This document shows, one piece after another, positions 2,571-11,290 of a stretch of 64,000 nucleotides of DNA. The DNA comes from a virus. Its lineage: Duplodnaviria > Caudoviricetes. Position 1 is the first letter of the stretch. Each line of letters opens with the position of its first letter. Below the pieces are notes generated by a model. That model saw nothing but the letters and a program-made list of their open reading frames with translations. It did no database searches and was not told the origin of the DNA. The position numbers and the translations under genes were made by a program. The stretch lies in IMG/VR virus record IMGVR_UViG_3300009285_001653, positions 43 through 64,042 of that record; one strand, 5' to 3'.

Positions 2571-2954
2571 ATGCTCAATAAAATACTTCCCATAAGAGAA
2601 GGAGATAAGTTTTTCACCCCTGACACCTATCCCCAAAGATTCAAGGCAGGCGATCTGGCACGGGTACGATTGTGCAAAGAGTCACTTGCACAAAAACCAG
2701 AAGTCCCTGATGACGAGTACCTAAAATATCCTCTACAGGACTACGAAGGGAAAGTTGTACAGGTTGTATCCAGGGCGGAGGACGAAGACAATACTCGTAC
2801 CACGTTTCCTGATAACGAAGGACTGGTAGAGTGCTACCTGCCTTTTTCCTTCTCCTATATCACAAAGTACGTGGATGACGCTGGTAGGATGCGCAAGAGG
2901 AAGCATACTAGCTTCAAACTTCCTATTCTGTACTCGTGTTTAGAGGAGATATGA
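2571..2954 (+). CDS. Hypothetical protein
   Basis: ORF with AAGGAG RBS. Confidence 0.6.
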   Translation: MLNKILPIREGDKFFTPDTYPQRFKAGDLARVRLCKESLAQKPEVPDDEYLKYPLQDYEGKVVQVVSRAEDEDNTRTTFPDNEGLVECYLPFSFSYITKYVDDAGRMRKRKHTSFKLPILYSCLEEI

Positions 2955-3265
2955 TGCCGCAGTTACCACAAATTGGTAGAAGAGGCACTAGGATAGCTAC
3001 TACAACAGATGGGGTAGTCTCAGTCTATTACCACAACACGCCGATCGTTGTGATTTACCCCAGTGGCAGGCTGATCCTAGATCATGGGGGATGGATGACA
3101 CCTACCACCAAAACACATATGAATCAAGCAAGTAGGCAGTTCAACTTGGGATTCCATGTGTATCAAGAGGACTTTGTGTGGTACGTGTCAGTTGATGGAC
3201 ACAATATAGAGTTTGATCACACGCCACTCACAATACGCAATGGAGCATCATACTGGGGAGGGTAG
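2954..3265 (+). CDS. Conserved phage hypothetical protein
   Basis: YHNTxIV...GGWxTxTTKxxMN pattern; coupled to the upstream gene. Confidence 0.6.
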   Translation: MPQLPQIGRRGTRIATTTDGVVSVYYHNTPIVVIYPSGRLILDHGGWMTPTTKTHMNQASRQFNLGFHVYQEDFVWYVSVDGHNIEFDHTPLTIRNGASYWGG

Positions 3266-3707
3266 CAATGGCAGATCGAATCAGGGAGGAAGTAGCATGC
3301 CACAAGTAATACTAGAGATGCACACGCCAGATTATCCGAGAGACGGTATCCAGATCCTCAGGATTGACGTTTGGGCGATGTGGAGGTATGGGTACATATC
3401 ACTAGAGCTGCTTGGCTTTGGTGCTACTTTGTCAGTTCGCTGGTATAGTGGAAGAGATGAAGAAGCATAGAGTACGCAAGGACCCTATCACCAAAGCTGA
3501 AGAGAGCAAGCATCCTTATCGTGTGTTTGATGCAGATGGGAATGAAGTCAGGGTGGACGCGGAGAGCGATGAGGAAGCCAGGGTGTTGGCGAAAGCGTGG
3601 CCGTGGAAGGGCAAGGTCACGGTAGAGAGGGTAAAGGCGTGAAAACACTGCACACCGCACAAATATGGCCACGCTGGTGGGTAGCGGAGAATAGAGGAGG
3701 CGACGCC

Positions 3708-5019: not shown

Positions 5020-5306
5020 TGTTCCCAAAGGAGACACCATGAAAGTTGTCTGCTCTGGCAGAATAATGATGACTGATCGTGAACACGGTTTCTCCGAGGG
5101 CTATCTCCGAGCTCGTCTAGGACATATACTCTTTACGCTCTTTACGGAGTGGATATACGGTCAAACAGTTGTACTAGATGACAACTTAGAAACAGTGTAC
5201 TTCCCGCAGGACGTACAGAGATTCTTGGACGGAGGAAAGGTTCTTGACTAGGAGCGTATTATACAGACGCTAGCTACTTGCAAAGTTGCTCAGGAAGGAG
5301 TAAAAT

Positions 5307-5570
5307 ATGATAGTAGGGATCGAACGAGATGACGAGGGGATCATTTTACACCTACGAGAGGATGATAATGATCCCATCATAGACGAGAAGGACTGGCTTG
5401 AGTTGGGGTTTAGTTTTGGTAGGGTGTCTGCTGAAAGTGGTATTCTAGCTATACAGTGGCACGAGTACGGAACAGATACCCACCGGTGTCCAGACACATT
5501 TATCATAAGCATAGAGGACCTCACACTAATGTTAAGCGGACAGTTGGCGTTTCCTTGGCTCCATGATTAA
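5307..5570 (+). CDS. Acidic hypothetical protein
   Basis: AAGGAG RBS. Confidence 0.55.
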   Translation: MIVGIERDDEGIILHLREDDNDPIIDEKDWLELGFSFGRVSAESGILAIQWHEYGTDTHRCPDTFIISIEDLTLMLSGQLAFPWLHD

Positions 5571-5699
5571 AGCAGCGCTGCCCACGCTTCTAGCAGCTCT
5601 TGCAGGTAGTGTTGCTATAGCTTTGTTGCTTAACATATCTGCTGGTACTGGAACCTTACTGTTCTGGTTAGTTGTTATAGCAATCGCGGGTATAAGAAA

Positions 5700-6011
5700 A
5701 TGACAACAGCATTTAAGTATCTTCGACGTTTTGGACTGCCTCCTAGTACAGAACATCTTGGTTCTACAGAAATCTCTAATATACCATCAAACTCTGAGAT
5801 AAAACGATGGTTAGAGAAGGGAGCCGTTTCGATAAACCATAAGACACCAAAACCCCATGACGAGATTACTTTTCCTGTATTTGAACTAGTCTTCTTCAAG
5901 CATAGCAAAAGAGTATGTACAATGGTTCACGACAACTGGTGTTTCGATCTCGACCAGATGATGTTAGGAGACTTCGGACACTACGACAATATGGTCAAGA
6001 TATTAAGGTGA
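5700..6011 (+). CDS. S4-like RNA-binding domain protein
   Basis: PSNSEIKRWLEKGAVSIN resembles the S4 motif SxSEARRLIxxGAVxIN. Confidence 0.55.
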   Translation: MTTAFKYLRRFGLPPSTEHLGSTEISNIPSNSEIKRWLEKGAVSINHKTPKPHDEITFPVFELVFFKHSKRVCTMVHDNWCFDLDQMMLGDFGHYDNMVKILR

Positions 6012-6267
6012 TATCATGCCAGGTCTCTGCCTGATGGCAATAGAGGACAACGCGGATCGTGTAGGCGAGCTTAACTGCCGCTCGTACAAGCTACGTGATC
6101 TTGACTACTGCTTCTACCACGAGATGAAATGCTATGTAGAAGCGTTAGAGAGAGAGTTAGAGTGGGAGATCAAGATCAGGATAGTTGAAGCGGCTCCGTT
6201 TAGGGACCTTACCGATAGACCACGCCCGAGAAACTATACAGATGGGTATGATGGCTAGAAGGACAGA

Positions 6268-6810
6268 ATGATTAGTATCAACGGTAAAAGACTAGACTCT
6301 GTTACACCAGAACAGATTAAGAAGATCATTCTCGATAGTGCGATGGCGAATGGTAGAAAGTTATTCGTTGTAAGAATGAATGGAGAACCAATCTCTAGCA
6401 ATCAGATCCCCGACCCGATACCGGACGGCACGACATTCTGGACATCATTCCCTGTCGTCAACGCGATTGTGTTAAATGTTGTACTCGCAAACCCACAAGA
6501 GTACAGACAGAAGAATAGTATTACTAGGACACTAGAGTTACCTAAAAGGATCCCTAGGACTAGAGAACAGATCTTGGATATGCTTGGCAGGAAGTGTTGT
6601 AGATGTGGCTATGATGCTGATGTGCGCGCTTTACAAATAGATCACATAAACGGCGGTGGCCGTGGGGAGAGGAAAAAGCTCAGAGGCTATGATAGATATT
6701 ATAAGCATATTTTAGCAAATCCAGCTGGGTATCAAATCCTCTGCGCGAACTGTAATTGTATCAAGATGTACGAAGAAGATGAGATCAGCCAACGTTATCA
6801 GGTGGAATAG
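6268..6810 (+). CDS. HNH endonuclease with an N-terminal Ubl-like domain
   Basis: CCRCG...LQIDHINGGG...LCANCN HNH core; N-terminal 60 aa align by eye with ORF 7986. Confidence 0.8.
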   Translation: MISINGKRLDSVTPEQIKKIILDSAMANGRKLFVVRMNGEPISSNQIPDPIPDGTTFWTSFPVVNAIVLNVVLANPQEYRQKNSITRTLELPKRIPRTREQILDMLGRKCCRCGYDADVRALQIDHINGGGRGERKKLRGYDRYYKHILANPAGYQILCANCNCIKMYEEDEISQRYQVE

Positions 6811-7119
6811 CGTTGTAATACAGGGTCCAGTCATCGTCCGTTCCTGTTGTAGTACGTCATTACGAGGTTTTAGTTGTAGTCTAGTAAGGTCAAAAAGAAA
6901 ACAGCGAAAATGGACAGATTTGAACCGAGGATCTACTAGACGACGAGGATTTCTCTGTAATGATGTACTACATCAGACGTGGTTTGTGTCTAAGCCTTGT
7001 AGTACAAAGCAGATTGGAGCGGGGCTAGTTCTTATGGTCAAATGTCCTAAAGGAGGAAAGTGATGCTTATGGCGGTGATATAACTCTAGTAGAGCTTTGC
7101 AAGAAGGAGAACAGATAAC

Positions 7120-7275
7120 ATGCCATCACACATCATAACATGTACCTGTGAACACGAGTTTCAGGACGAGCGGTACGGCAAGGGAAGGAGGCTCGCTAAC
7201 GAGGTCAAGAAGAAAAGCCCGGGGGATCCGGTGTCGGCTCGCTGTACAGTCTGTTCTACAGTGAGGGCAGTTTAG
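7120..7275 (+). CDS. Small Zn-ribbon protein (51 aa)
   Basis: MPSHIITCTCEHEFQDERYG...RCTVC; AAGGAG RBS; below the ORF-track size cutoff. Confidence 0.65.
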   Translation: MPSHIITCTCEHEFQDERYGKGRRLANEVKKKSPGDPVSARCTVCSTVRAV

Positions 7276-7301
7276 CAATAGAAGACTAGAAGATTGGAAA
7301 G

Positions 7302-7509
7302 CCTGCGGAATATATGGACCTGCCAGTGAAGCGCGCTAGCTGGTGGAGTTGCTGATGCCAACTACTTTGGCTCGACTATCAGGATAATAGAGGTTATGCC
7401 TCCTGGTATGTCGAGTGCAGTACTCTGTTCACAAAGTAGTGTGAGTTGAGGCGGAGAAGGTTGAGTTTTATTCAGCCACGCAGGACAAGCAGCTATGGGG
7501 TGAGGCTGC
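7302..7509 (+). ncRNA. Predicted multi-stem structured RNA of unknown family
   Basis: Nested stems 7302-07/7479-84, 7361-69/7432-40, 7371-76/7410-15 and 7377-84/7401-08; hairpins 7459-77 and 7489-7509; gap without a long ORF. Confidence 0.55.
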
Positions 7510-7532
7510 AATAGTTTAATTGGGAGGGAAAG

Positions 7533-7820
7533 ATGGGTGTGTTTGATACCATAAAACTACCAAATGGTGACGAGGCTCAGGTAAAGCTATGGGGCCGTTG
7601 CGCACATACCTACCATCTGGGTGATATTGTGCCTGCGTTACACACCTCTAACGCTACCATGACCTACTTAATCGCGTTACGAGAAGGAGGCTTTGTAAAT
7701 ATCGTTAATGACGTGCTAGTGTCTTTTATTACTGAACTTCCCCCCATATTCGATAAGTGGGGCAGCGGGGACTGGCAAGATGAGGATTATTTGTTTAATG
7801 GGAAAGCCGTAGAAGGTTGA
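7533..7820 (+). CDS. Hypothetical phage protein
   Basis: GGAGG RBS; starts MGVFDTI. Confidence 0.65.
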   Translation: MGVFDTIKLPNGDEAQVKLWGRCAHTYHLGDIVPALHTSNATMTYLIALREGGFVNIVNDVLVSFITELPPIFDKWGSGDWQDEDYLFNGKAVEG

Positions 7821-7985
7821 TAGCAGACCAGCTCGAGGCCAATTATGACGCTGCGATAGTAACAACTGTAAGCAGTCATCTGGTCTGCTATGAGCCTTCT
7901 ACCCGTAGGGTGCTGGTACGGGCGAGGTTCAAGTTATTCGGGTTAGCTAACCCAAACAACAAAAGTCTAGTAGTGAGGAGGAAGC

Positions 7986-8222
7986 ATGGCTGGTTGGAAC
8001 ACGAACGCGACTCTGAACGGTAACGCGATTGAGCCGGGTGGCAACTTTCGTACAACCGTTACAGCAAAAGCAGCGCAGCTCGGGTACACAAACTTCCGAG
8101 TATTGCTCAATGGCTCTGAGTTAGATGTCGGCGGGGCACCAGAGCTGGTCAATGCCGGAGCGGTGATCGAAGTCCGGCCTTTCGATAAGGCTGGAAAGAA
8201 GGCTGGAAAGTCTAGCAGCTAG
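7986..8222 (+). CDS. Ubiquitin-like (beta-grasp, ThiS/MoaD-like) protein with a C-terminal extension
   Basis: 78 aa; FRVLLNG and terminal strand VIEVRPFDKAG followed by KKAGKSSS; GAGGAGG RBS; directly upstream of E1 and JAB genes. Confidence 0.75.
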   Translation: MAGWNTNATLNGNAIEPGGNFRTTVTAKAAQLGYTNFRVLLNGSELDVGGAPELVNAGAVIEVRPFDKAGKKAGKSSS

Positions 8223-8281
8223 GACAAGGTACATAGGAGACGCTGCACCCGTCTCCACTACCAACTCGAGGAGGAATTATT

Positions 8282-10066
8282 ATGGCTTTTATAGAAGTAG
8301 ATCGGAGCAGAGTAGCTAAGTGGCCCGGAGAACCAGGTGGCTATGAGCATGATAGGTATGGTCTACCTTTACCGGGCAGGTATATCTCCCTAGACGAGTG
8401 CTCTCAGACTGCGTCATATACTAGGATAGTTGGCGGGCCACTTGCCGGCAAGAGGGTGCTTACTGGCCGGTTATATGCAGCACGCGGGCCGAACACGCAC
8501 GCGACATATAGCGTGTGTACGGATTGTGGTTGTATAAGAGGGACTCCACCGGGGTATTGTCATAGGACCCCCACAGAGATAGATGATGCTCATCTAGCTT
8601 GTCCTACCTGCAGTCACCATTTTTGTAGACACTGCTATATGCCATCAGAAAGACCCCTTTGTGCGGTATGTGAGCAACGACGCCATGAGTATAGGAGTTG
8701 GACTACACAAGGGCGTGACCAGAGACTAGCTAACATACAGAGGTTGGGAAGAAGTGCTTTTCCTACAATATCTCTATGGGAGAGAGACGGGGCTGCGTTA
8801 CAAGAATCATTTCCCTTCGTATATGAGCCCAATCTTCTTATACTAAGAGGAGATCTGGAAGCGGATATTACAGAGGAGGCTCAAGCGCTGCTAAGAAGAG
8901 ACCTGTGGTGTCACATTACAAATGGTGGAAGGAGTAGTAGGGTATACATCACGACTGATATAGAAGGCACAGGTCTTTTTGAGCACTACCATGTAGGTTG
9001 TTGGGGTGATGTTCAACTTCCTGTGGGTGCTACTCCAGCACAAATAGCAGAAATAGCCCATGATGTGTTGACCGTAGTAAATGGAGCCTCGCCTGCACGA
9101 GAGCGTCCAATAGGACTACCTTATACCGTAGCTCACATACCACACGGGCCAACGAGATCAACTCGTGGCTGGAATACAGAGAGGATACGTGTGCTAACCG
9201 AGCGAGAGAGACTACTGCAAGACATATTTAGTAGGCAGCAGGGGGTAGATCTGGCTGTACCGGAATCTATAATGGTGGTGGGTTGCGGGGGGGTTGGGTG
9301 GTATGTCGCACTGCAAGCCGCTCTCATAGGAGTAAAGAGGATATTGTTAGTAGATTATGATCATATAGATCTCACTAATATGAGTAGGCTACCTACGAGT
9401 ATGGTGGATATGTTAAAAGCAACAGACCTGGCACACATGATAAATGGTAGTACATGGAGAGCTCTGGTAGGTACAGACACATATAACTGTGCTGTCTACG
9501 AGCGCCAAGTACAGGAGCTTTCGGAACATATAAACACGGGATTTTTTAGGACTAGCTTTGGGCCACATTATCCAATAGAGAACAGGCCTTTAGATGTTAT
9601 ATTAGATACTACAGATGACATAGCCACCCAGAGAAGTATCTACCGCATGGCTAGAAGGTGCGGGGCGAGGTATATTAGAGCGGGATACGATGGAGGCTGG
9701 CACGTTACTGTGAGTTCAAGAGAATCGCCGGAGTGGGAAGTAGAAGGAACAACTCCAGGTTATAGAGTAGCGGCGTGGGTTGGTGGAGCACAGTTCGCTG
9801 CTAGTATAGCTATTACGAAGATGTGCTATAAGCCTGAGTTGGAAATTAGCGCCGATATTAGGCATATGCTAGTGCAGTTCCATCAGGAGGATTTAGTAGT
9901 AACTGAAGACATTTCTACCTGGGTGGAGGTACCGGAGGAGGAAGGAATACCAGTACTAGAGGTGGAGGAAGGAATACCTACAGTAGAAGAAATACCTGTA
10001 AACCGTATACCATTTCCGCCACCGCAAATGTGGACGGTGTATAGTGATACAGCATCTACAGTTTAG
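8282..10066 (+). CDS. Zn-finger + E2-like + ThiF/E1 adenylyltransferase fusion
   Basis: Four CxxC pairs (8516-8671); HYHVGCWG (8984-9007); E1 motifs VVGCGGVG, DYDxIDLTNMSR and DTTDD. Confidence 0.8.
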   Translation: MAFIEVDRSRVAKWPGEPGGYEHDRYGLPLPGRYISLDECSQTASYTRIVGGPLAGKRVLTGRLYAARGPNTHATYSVCTDCGCIRGTPPGYCHRTPTEIDDAHLACPTCSHHFCRHCYMPSERPLCAVCEQRRHEYRSWTTQGRDQRLANIQRLGRSAFPTISLWERDGAALQESFPFVYEPNLLILRGDLEADITEEAQALLRRDLWCHITNGGRSSRVYITTDIEGTGLFEHYHVGCWGDVQLPVGATPAQIAEIAHDVLTVVNGASPARERPIGLPYTVAHIPHGPTRSTRGWNTERIRVLTERERLLQDIFSRQQGVDLAVPESIMVVGCGGVGWYVALQAALIGVKRILLVDYDHIDLTNMSRLPTSMVDMLKATDLAHMINGSTWRALVGTDTYNCAVYERQVQELSEHINTGFFRTSFGPHYPIENRPLDVILDTTDDIATQRSIYRMARRCGARYIRAGYDGGWHVTVSSRESPEWEVEGTTPGYRVAAWVGGAQFAASIAITKMCYKPELEISADIRHMLVQFHQEDLVVTEDISTWVEVPEEEGIPVLEVEEGIPTVEEIPVNRIPFPPPQMWTVYSDTASTV

Positions 10067-10087
10067 TAAGGAGGAGGAAAAGAGATA

Positions 10088-11008
10088 GTGTCAGGATATG
10101 ACGATACTTTCGGTCATTATGCAGATCATAGCGAACCAGCACCATTTTTGCCGCAAGACCAAGGCGGATGGACGACGGGGGATCAAGTACCTACTCACCA
10201 TTCTTGTCCATATACGACGGGGACTATTTACTTAGCACCACTGGCTTATGCTAAGATTACCGCTCTTATGGACAAGTTTAATAAAGAGTGGTTAGCATAT
10301 ATGCTAGGAAAGTGGGTAGATGAGAATGTCGTTGTAGACGACTTGTACATACCGGAACAGGTATCGTCAGCAGCAACCGTGTCAAACGTGGAAGAATCTC
10401 CTCCCGAGGGGACTATTGGCGTAATGCACTCTCATGTACGGATGGGAGCGTTCTTTAGCGGAACTGATGACGAGTTCATCAATAGCAATCATAGGATAAG
10501 TATAGTAGTTAGTAGATCGCGGGGCAGCGAAGATTTGGTATTTAAGTCGAGCGTGAGGAAGCAGGTAGCTTGTGGCATAACAATGCTACTAGAAATGCCC
10601 GTAAGGATGGCTGTTGTTACGCCACAGATACGGGACTGGATAGAAGAGTGCTCACCAAGAGTTAAAGACTGGGTTTATAAAGCACCAGTCCAGAAAGCAA
10701 GTATTCTGAGTGTAGAGAAGAGGAGGATACCGTGGTGGGAGAAGAAGGCAGAGGTTAATGATCCACTGTCTGCTCTACTAGAAAAAGTAGATGAGATGGC
10801 TTTGCTAACACCACAATTACTTACTTCATATAGTAATGCTTTTCCGCCCGGGGTAAGGGTGTTTGATGCTGTAAAAACAGTGGATAATAAGACACTACTA
10901 GAAGCGCTTACCTATATGGAGAGGTTCGGTCTTGACAAGCCGGGTCAGATACAGTATAACAAGTATACAGTAGCATATAGAGAGATGTCAAAGAGGTTAA
11001 AGGAATGA
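10088..11008 (+). CDS. JAB/MPN+ metalloprotease (Ubl-processing or deconjugating)
   Basis: EW...HSHxxMGAFFSGTD is a complete JAMM motif. Confidence 0.9.
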   Translation: MSGYDDTFGHYADHSEPAPFLPQDQGGWTTGDQVPTHHSCPYTTGTIYLAPLAYAKITALMDKFNKEWLAYMLGKWVDENVVVDDLYIPEQVSSAATVSNVEESPPEGTIGVMHSHVRMGAFFSGTDDEFINSNHRISIVVSRSRGSEDLVFKSSVRKQVACGITMLLEMPVRMAVVTPQIRDWIEECSPRVKDWVYKAPVQKASILSVEKRRIPWWEKKAEVNDPLSALLEKVDEMALLTPQLLTSYSNAFPPGVRVFDAVKTVDNKTLLEALTYMERFGLDKPGQIQYNKYTVAYREMSKRLKE

Positions 11009-11053
11009 TGAGGCAGACAACCACGATGAATCTAATGGGCCGGAGGAGTAGCC

Positions 11054-11290
11054 ATGATGTTGACTAAAGCACAGGAACGTTGTTTAAGCTACGCCAGAAA
11101 GGTGCGGGTGGTATCGGCGTGGCCCGCCGACATCTCAGATGCAACTATCCGTGCGTGCCGAAAAGCTGGTTGGCTGGACGCTTATGAGCTTACTGGGATG
11201 ATGGTAGGCGGACAAAGATTTGCGCCAGGGCCAAAAGAGCGTGACGAGTTGACTCCAACGGGTCGGGCAGCGCTGGATGAGAAGCCATGA
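11054..11290 (+). CDS. Small winged-helix-like protein
   Basis: LTKAQ...GWL...LTPTGRAAL pattern. Confidence 0.55.
   Translation: MMLTKAQERCLSYARKVRVVSAWPADISDATIRACRKAGWLDAYELTGMMVGGQRFAPGPKERDELTPTGRAALDEKP

Follow-up and report, generated by a model that had tools for sequence, protein, structure and literature searches.

Among the described systems closest to the gene considered here, a putative chimera of a ubiquitin-like (Ubl) family domain and an HNH endonuclease in a virus of the Caudoviricetes (IMG/VR record IMGVR_UViG_3300009285_001653), are the Ub-Mut7C proteins of the Thermotoga maritima TM_0779 type, in which an N-terminal ThiS/MoaD-like domain is joined to a Mut7-C RNase (Iyer, Burroughs and Aravind 2006; PMC1779556). 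The stretch of DNA analysed, called the window in the following, comprises 64,000 nt (positions 43 to 64,042) and is nearly the entire 64,042-bp viral record, to which CheckV assigns a completeness of 67%; the chimeric gene lies upstream of an operon for a conjugation-type Ubl, an E2-like/E1 protein and a JAB peptidase (Table 1). As described in PMC1779556, the Ub-Mut7C proteins share with this gene product an N-terminal ubiquitin-fold domain without a free C-terminus, followed by a C-terminal nuclease with a zinc module. Unlike the HNH fusion, they carry a PIN-like Mut7-C RNase and occur in many bacteria without a shared genomic setting, a comparison made by description, whereas the Ubl of the fusion very probably comes from a family of the conjugation type whose gene stands next to those for an E1 and a JAB in the same phage; the fusion itself is seen in one phage only.

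A second point of comparison is phage lambda, for which cleavage of the Ubl domain of gpI (TAPI) by gpK (JAB plus NlpC/P60) was reported as an assembly checkpoint in a conference summary (PMC12908700), a cleavage predicted earlier in PMC1779556. Both cases have a phage protein with an N-terminal Ubl and a functional C-terminal domain, together with a phage JAB. However, gpI is a tail assembly protein in which a Gly closes the Ubl and a Gly-rich linker follows, whereas the fusion is a nuclease without Gly at the junction; furthermore, it lies in an early/middle gene region and next to an operon that encodes an E1 and an E2-like part as well. The Ubls of type II cyclic oligonucleotide-based antiphage signalling systems (CBASS, with Cap2/Cap3) and of the Bil and Bub systems may carry extra N-terminal domains and always have a conjugatable C-terminal end (overview in PMC11601603). 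The operon next to the fusion resembles these systems by its Ubl, E2-like/E1 protein and JAB, unlike which the extra Ubl-family domain of the fusion stands N-terminal in its protein and is non-conjugatable. The E1 had weak matches, each within the Rossmann region, to 24 PADLOC "E1-E2" (Cap2) models (best E 2.7e-10), and none of the PADLOC models matched the Ubl, the JAB or the HNH protein.

That bacterial Ubl/E1/E2/JAB operons such as CBASS, Bil and Bub conjugate proteins is a recent finding. In eukaryotes, the integral UBL domains of Rad23, Dsk2 and parkin use a non-conjugated ubiquitin fold as a docking surface, and ZRANB3 is an HNH nuclease recruited via a ubiquitin-binding zinc finger; both are functional analogies to the fusion only, being eukaryotic and unrelated in sequence. 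An N-terminal Ubl on a nuclease (Ub-Mut7C) and on a phage protein cut by a JAB (gpI) are already known. New here is a conjugation-family Ubl grafted onto an HNH beside its own E1/JAB operon, since neither a Ubl-HNH fusion nor this phage operon was found described in the open-access literature searched.

The N-terminal domain and the phage Ubl family

The initial annotation had described a Ubl-like domain fused to an HNH nuclease 1.2 kb upstream of the operon. The open reading frame (ORF) was recovered exactly, and the gap between its end and the Ubl gene at 7986 measures 1176 bp and holds two small ORFs. The likeness of its N-terminus to the Ubl had been noted by eye, and in direct comparison the two did not rise above chance: BLASTP of amino acids (aa) 1-80 against the Ubl gave nothing at E≤100, a Smith-Waterman alignment scored 26 (z 0.98), which was reached by 17% of 2000 shuffles, and hhalign with a two-sequence profile, built from the Ubl and its one 74%-identical relative, returned a probability of 17%. 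On pairwise tests alone, the alignment would therefore be rejected.

Profiles of the wider family led to a different result. To this end, the E1 was aligned with seven relatives and this alignment was used to fetch four viral and 18 metagenome loci; a Ubl sub-alignment fetched 18 further viral loci, giving 40 loci in total (L002-L005, L011-L046), many of them short. A scan of viral contigs with the single E1 protein had found nothing, whereas the alignment-based scan did find loci. Against the N-terminus of the fusion, hhalign reached a probability of 91.7% (E 7.8e-7) with a six-sequence family profile and 89.9% (E 1.7e-6) with a 16-sequence profile. Four hmmsearch profiles agreed, with none of 5000 shuffles attaining the respective score: 17.3 bits for the six-sequence profile (shuffle maximum 8.4), 16.8 bits for a profile lacking the window's own Ubl and the sequence P0122 (maximum 9.7), 20.3 bits for a 23-sequence profile (maximum 12.4) and 18.7 bits for a 21-sequence profile lacking this phage and L012/L013 (maximum 14.4). 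The register of the match, in which aa 2-56 of the fusion correspond to aa 8-60 of the Ubl, is the one drawn by eye. Among 4952 six-frame segments taken from the window and the 40 loci, the HNH ORF was found at E 0.0017 (16.7 bits), whereas noise began at E 4.2 and stayed at or below 5.8 bits; the only non-Ubl ORFs above the noise were this ORF and one other (L021_420_683, see below). The N-terminus alone, used as a phmmer query, matched the family Ubls of two loci (L004, E 0.0024; L040, E 0.0021).

The similarity runs over the family core (NG ... G.F ... G.KFRV.LNGEEI...AP...G) and ends at aa 55-58. The family-invariant residues V35, N38, G39 and P48 are kept in the fusion, as are G29 and G54. 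In the ESM Atlas model (mean predicted local distance difference test score, pLDDT, 0.68), the nearest neighbours of aa 1-61 are ThiS clusters, with template modelling (TM) scores of 0.56 and 0.57 over 59 aligned residues, and those of the free Ubl (aa 5-70) are viral and ThiS-like clusters with TM scores of 0.59-0.76. We consider it highly probable that aa 2-56 share common ancestry with the Ubls of the phage Ubl/E2-like/E1/JAB operons, a case in which profile methods recover a Ubl relative missed by pairwise and Pfam searches.

The competing view, that an unrelated small domain shares the NG...F.V..NG..I...P...G spacing by chance or convergence, could draw on the non-significant pairwise tests and the 17% of the two-sequence profile, on AlphaFold2 models that are uninformative, and on the fact that shuffles lose secondary-structure periodicity and may overstate significance. 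Yet it is a very improbable one, given four independent profiles of which two exclude this phage's Ubl, the distance of the HNH ORF from real six-frame noise, hhalign probabilities of about 90% and a structure-based neighbour search that independently finds ThiS. Additional sequence searches of the Protein Data Bank (PDB) gave only a Kelch match at E 1.1 for aa 1-71 and nothing below E 0.2 for the Ubl family profile.

The initial annotation had also stated that this copy has no KAG end, which proved accurate. Where the family reads P-[YF]-D-x-A-G, the fusion reads FPVVNA and then continues into IVLNVVLANPQEYRQKN and the HNH domain, with 114 more residues to its end. Neither AG nor GG occurs at the domain end, and there is no Gly in aa 55-106. 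The junction segment TFWTSF is a possible last strand, and a hydrophobic run (IVLNVVLA) follows FPVVNA. The fusion thus lacks a conjugatable tail (P[YF]DxAG or xPA within 8 residues of the protein end), and it is not a small ORF immediately upstream of the E2-like/E1 genes, as a stand-alone family Ubl would be. By these features the fused domain is a relative of the family and not a functional conjugatable member. Because it has no free C-terminus and no AG, it should not, as it stands, be adenylated by E1 or conjugated. Nor is it a recent copy of the tag, as it is just 16% identical to the Ubl of this phage and shares 15-25% identity with the family.

The junction also bears on whether the N-terminus could be a cleavable pro-domain, which the JAB would cut off the HNH, releasing or activating the nuclease and perhaps freeing a second Ubl species. 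The JAB is intact and adjacent, and several family Ubls are pro-forms with 1-8 residues past the AG, so that processing would fit the biology of the family. A final Ala occurs there as well (P-A in two members), and the fusion has N-A at the matching place. Precedents are the reported cleavage of the gpI Ubl domain by gpK (conference summary, PMC12908700) and the release of fused Ubls by JAB proposed by Iyer et al. 2006 (PMC1779556). However, the P[YF]DxAG recognition motif is absent from the fusion, including the D that is invariant in all 16 aligned members, a Gly or AG at the domain end as in gpI-type cleavage sites is missing, and the profile match stops short of the tail. From this comparison, a pro-domain appears quite unlikely.

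As a separate observation, the junction NAIVLNVVLA (6436-6480) resembles the C-terminal extension of a pro-Ubl from another locus (NAG-NVVLV, L002:7285-7305), although the segment is too short for testing. The captured Ubl might, to go by this resemblance, have been a pro-form with a hydrophobic extension.

The HNH half and the origin of the fusion

That the domain runs into an HNH nuclease, as had been proposed, is borne out by matches to PHROG 2255 (E 3.6e-13 over aa 85-173) and PHROG 3106 (E 2.8e-11), two of the six HNH-annotated PHROGs that matched at E≤0.001. Pfam Endonuclease_7 reached only E 0.022 (15.1 bits, under the cut-off of 23.6). In total, 230 homologues were found at E≤0.001; among the 120 listed, the 119 other than the query protein match it over only about 38-92% of its length. 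When the protein was aligned with 14 of its homologues, the HNH part alone was alignable. Within this 15-sequence alignment, C110, C113, D125, H126, C159, C162 and N163 are invariant, and the fusion has the family residue at all 25 invariant columns, including CxxC, DH and CxxCN. The motifs C110/C111-x-C113, D125-H126, N128 and C159-x2-C162-N163 are invariant or nearly so in the family, and aa 85-176 show the DH...N and the two CxxC pairs of the HNH/endonuclease VII superfamily. We take the catalytic roles of these conserved residues to be those of T4 endonuclease VII. A search of the HNH profile against PDB sequences returned nothing at E≤1, i.e., no solved relative by sequence. Aa ~85-176 are accordingly an ordinary phage HNH whose nuclease core looks intact.

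The C-terminal 95 residues (CxxC...DH...N...CxxCN) are shared with the free-standing phage HNHs of PHROG 2255/3106, unlike which the fusion has a Ubl-family N-terminus; basic repeats of the YR..N..KI type form the N-termini of the 14 aligned members. The segment NPQEYRQKN at the junction is the last remnant of these repeats.

The closest relative of this phage locus, L012/L013, is 58% identical to the window in the E1, 67% in the Ubl and 72% in the gene upstream of the HNH. It carries an orthologous HNH gene at the same site, directly after the same upstream gene and before the Ubl operon. The two HNH cores are 53% identical (47/88), whereas over the first ~85-100 codons neither the DNA nor the protein sequences can be aligned. 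Correspondingly, DNA similarity extends through the upstream gene, is absent over the 5′ part of the HNH gene and returns in the core. The N-terminus of the L012 protein is of the basic-repeat kind and gives no match to the Ubl profile at E≤10. As basic repeats are found in L012 and in the other aligned members of the HNH family, the Ubl domain is to be seen as a replacement in this lineage, and the sequences are most simply read as an exchange of the usual N-terminal module for a Ubl-family domain in the lineage of this phage. For the identity of the domain and the swap within the lineage taken jointly, our confidence is likewise very high. Regarding homing, the HNH gene is at the same site in both phages compared, and an HNH-free close relative was not among them.

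Two further differences between the phages lie near this site. A gene of 103-109 aa (...YPxGRxxLDHGGxxTxTTKTxMNQAS...) is located in the window at 2936-3265, 3 kb upstream of the HNH gene, and in L012 at 3090-3401, between the HNH and Ubl genes; the region between the HNH gene and the operon was therefore rearranged. Moreover, the window ORFs at 7120-7275 and 7533-7820 have no counterpart in L012.

Possible roles of the fused domain

Our preferred reading is that the fused domain may serve as a built-in, non-covalent ubiquitin-like domain, i.e., as a protein-protein docking or regulatory module. A Ubl-family module would have replaced the direct DNA-binding repeats of the HNH protein, and the nuclease would be brought to its site or gated by partners that recognise the beta-grasp surface. 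Such a partner could be E2/E1, JAB or free Ubl, or else a reader of Ubl-modified proteins. On the present analysis we assign this reading a probability of roughly 0.4. The more specific idea that the domain couples the nuclease to the phage Ubl machine, either by docking at E2/E1, JAB or Ubl-marked proteins or by a removal timed by JAB, is unlikely in our estimate. If it were true, DNA would be cut where the Ubl system acts (docking), or the nuclease would be activated at a timed step (removal by JAB), and the protein would be the first nuclease wired into a viral Ubl pathway via a genetically fused, non-conjugatable Ubl.

The initial annotation had gone in this direction when it called the protein a genetically pre-tagged nuclease and suggested that the Ubl is a tag for targeting or assembly and that the system is linked to DNA cleavage. 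The first part stands insofar as a second Ubl-family domain is in frame with an intact-looking HNH and has no conjugatable end. The role as a targeting or assembly tag did not gain from the analysis and is a conceivable one that we infer at most: complex prediction for the E2/E1 protein with aa 1-70, the former represented by its own alignment and the latter by an alignment of the N-terminus together with the Ubl family, gave scores of 0.15 and 0.01 relative to a mark of 0.32, which neither supports nor contradicts it.

A number of findings weigh against a docking or regulatory module. With respect to the fold, a beta-grasp for aa 1-61 is predicted by one method plus homology. The AlphaFold2 single-sequence models had pLDDT values of 35 (full length) and 53 (aa 1-70); Foldseek searches of these models against the PDB gave no match at E≤0.001 (best E≥1.3), and the VIA wide structure search reached a best Z of 3.6. 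The order b-b-a-b-b-b of secondary-structure elements, which would fit a beta-grasp, was seen in these low-confidence models, and the weak Foldseek list of the full-length model (E≥2.1) includes several ubiquitin-fold chains, to which we give no weight. Pfam ThiS (PF02597, cut-off 22.5 bits) had nothing at E≤1 for the fusion protein, and the complete phage record held no match to it even at E≤10; 0 of 6 free family Ubls were recognised. A phmmer search of aa 1-85 against 1.84 billion representatives found no true homologue besides the protein itself, which was one of nine proteins at E≤0.001. The eight others were treated as repeat-protein artefacts; Pfam showed unrelated repeat proteins in four of them, and the similarity of the top match examined (P0123) came solely via a repeated DG(S/T)T.WTSF unit.

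With respect to sequence and distribution, no other family member diverges as far as the fused domain, which scores 17-20 bits versus 52.7-137 for true Ubls. The equivalent of the invariant G18 is replaced by P14, and in place of D67 there is V or P; such divergence and loss of residues fit relaxed constraint as well as a new function. All 23 distinct family Ubls are stand-alone small ORFs and none is fused. The architecture is therefore a singleton of one phage lineage and not a conserved part of the system. HNH proteins of the same family occur in the 40 loci only in L011 (the same phage) and in L012/L013, i.e., near the operon of one other phage only, where the N-terminus is not Ubl-like; HNH scans of genome and viral contigs gave eight further HNH loci (L047-L054), with a Ubl-like segment in 0 of 8. 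Finally, a functional link to the Ubl machinery is one that we infer, and the surroundings of the gene add little to it. No above-chance promoter or terminator signal ties or separates the HNH gene and the Ubl operon, and since all genes from position 1 to ~34 kb share the + strand, the co-orientation of the HNH gene and the operon means little.

Phage HNH genes are typically mobile and modular, and several of these points could equally be explained if the fusion were an evolutionary by-product unconnected to the Ubl system: a resident HNH gene, probably once mobile, would have recombined with a Ubl paralogue and thereby exchanged its 5′ part. What is left of the beta-grasp might then be a generic N-terminal fold or a nucleic-acid binder, as proposed for the Ub-Mut7C RNases, or the domain might drift neutrally, its frame staying open because the HNH has to be translated. 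The singleton architecture fits this view, as do the extreme divergence of the domain, with G18, D67 and the AG tail gone and just 16% identity to the phage's own Ubl, and the standard N-terminus at the same locus of the nearest relative. Furthermore, the Ubl of Ub-Mut7C was read as RNA-binding by Iyer et al. 2006 (PMC1779556). On the other hand, a 55-residue profile match survived deep divergence, and the fold predicted by ESM is complete up to aa 61; both suggest that the domain still folds. The protein is also identical in the contigs of at least four further runs, though this reflects a clonal population rather than selection. In addition, the donor family is the very family encoded next door, which under a pure by-product would be a coincidence. 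On balance a by-product seems rather unlikely.

If the graft is functional, as in the docking or regulatory reading, it would be a natural bait for whatever recognises the family Ubl and a first hint that the Ubl pathway touches DNA transactions. If it is a by-product, it would still illustrate cleanly how a resident HNH gene of a phage can capture a domain.

Gene neighbourhood and related loci

The features of the locus are compiled in Table 1. Genes run on the + strand from position 1 to ~34 kb, beyond which large structural genes follow on the - strand.

Table 1. Coordinates of the chimeric gene, its parts and the neighbouring Ubl operon in the window
Feature	Position	Strand	Details and basis
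Chimeric gene, putative Ubl-family domain + HNH endonuclease	6268..6810	+	180 aa, ATG start; ORF list
Shine-Dalgarno-like AAGGA	6259..6263	+	4 nt before the ATG at 6268; abuts the TAG (6256-6258) of the upstream gene
Probable Ubl-family domain, aa 2-56	6271..6435	+	predicted beta-grasp core to last conserved Gly; profile matches
Junction, aa 57-84	6436..6519	+	TFWTSF, FPVVNA, IVLNVVLA, NPQEYRQKN; alignments of the HNH family, L012 and the Ubl family
HNH (endonuclease VII-like) core, aa 85-176	6520..6795	+	PHROG matches, invariant columns
Conjugation-type Ubl	7986..8222	+	78 aa, end ...PFDKAG-KKAGKSSS; family alignments
Zn-finger / E2-like / E1 (ThiF) fusion protein	8282..10066	+	594 aa; Pfam ThiF E 1.7e-14; 7 relatives
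JAB/JAMM peptidase (HSHVRMGAFFSGTDD)	10088..11008	+	306 aa; Pfam Prok-JAB E 2.5e-7; kept downstream of E1 in related loci

Between the HNH gene and the Ubl operon, two stretches of ~260-310 nt (6810-7120 and 7275-7533) are without a convincing ORF, and Rfam searches of 6700-8300 gave nothing at E≤0.1. The collection of GenBank phages contained no DNA match to 6000-11100. An identical 180-aa protein is on record on 19 contigs. Over 5300-8300, the contigs of four further public runs (from three studies) showed 0 differences, no joints and only gaps in coverage, and they provide no evidence regarding expression, variation or mobility. Of the 19 listed sequencing runs, none of them an RNA run, 16 contained half or more of the sampled words. 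Judging from these runs and the identical contigs, the phage population looks clonal across samples.

The Ubl/E2-like/E1/JAB operon defines a phage family, for which the Ubl searches yielded 36 matches representing 23 distinct sequences. Longer loci have the order Ubl, E2-like ORF, E1 and JAB, and short loci hold part of this set; distant relatives encode the E2-like part and the E1 in two ORFs, and in the window and L012 the two are fused. A search of 185,579 prokaryote species, each represented by one genome, yielded no E1 relative, so that all known occurrences of the family in this analysis are from viral or metagenome contigs.

In the 16-sequence Ubl alignment, the end is AG in 14 members and PA in 2, and half of the members (8/16) terminate exactly there. 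All 18 Ubls of the later viral set end in Y[DE]xAG plus 0-1 residue. The mature end thus reads Y/F-D/E-x-A-G, at which about half of the Ubls stop, while others continue for 1-8 residues (KKAGKSSS in the window, 8184-8222); processing after the AG seems, by these termini, to be optional within the family. The second KAG in the tail of the window's Ubl is not conserved in P0122 or L012.

A second Ubl-like segment was detected in the 40 loci only in L011 and in L021. In the latter, a short ORF directly upstream of the E1 (L021:420-683, + strand) matches the second half of the Ubl profile only (19.7 bits, E 0.0002) and runs into a CxxC...CxxC segment where YDxAG would be expected. This ORF may represent another tail-less Ubl fusion or a frameshifted contig.

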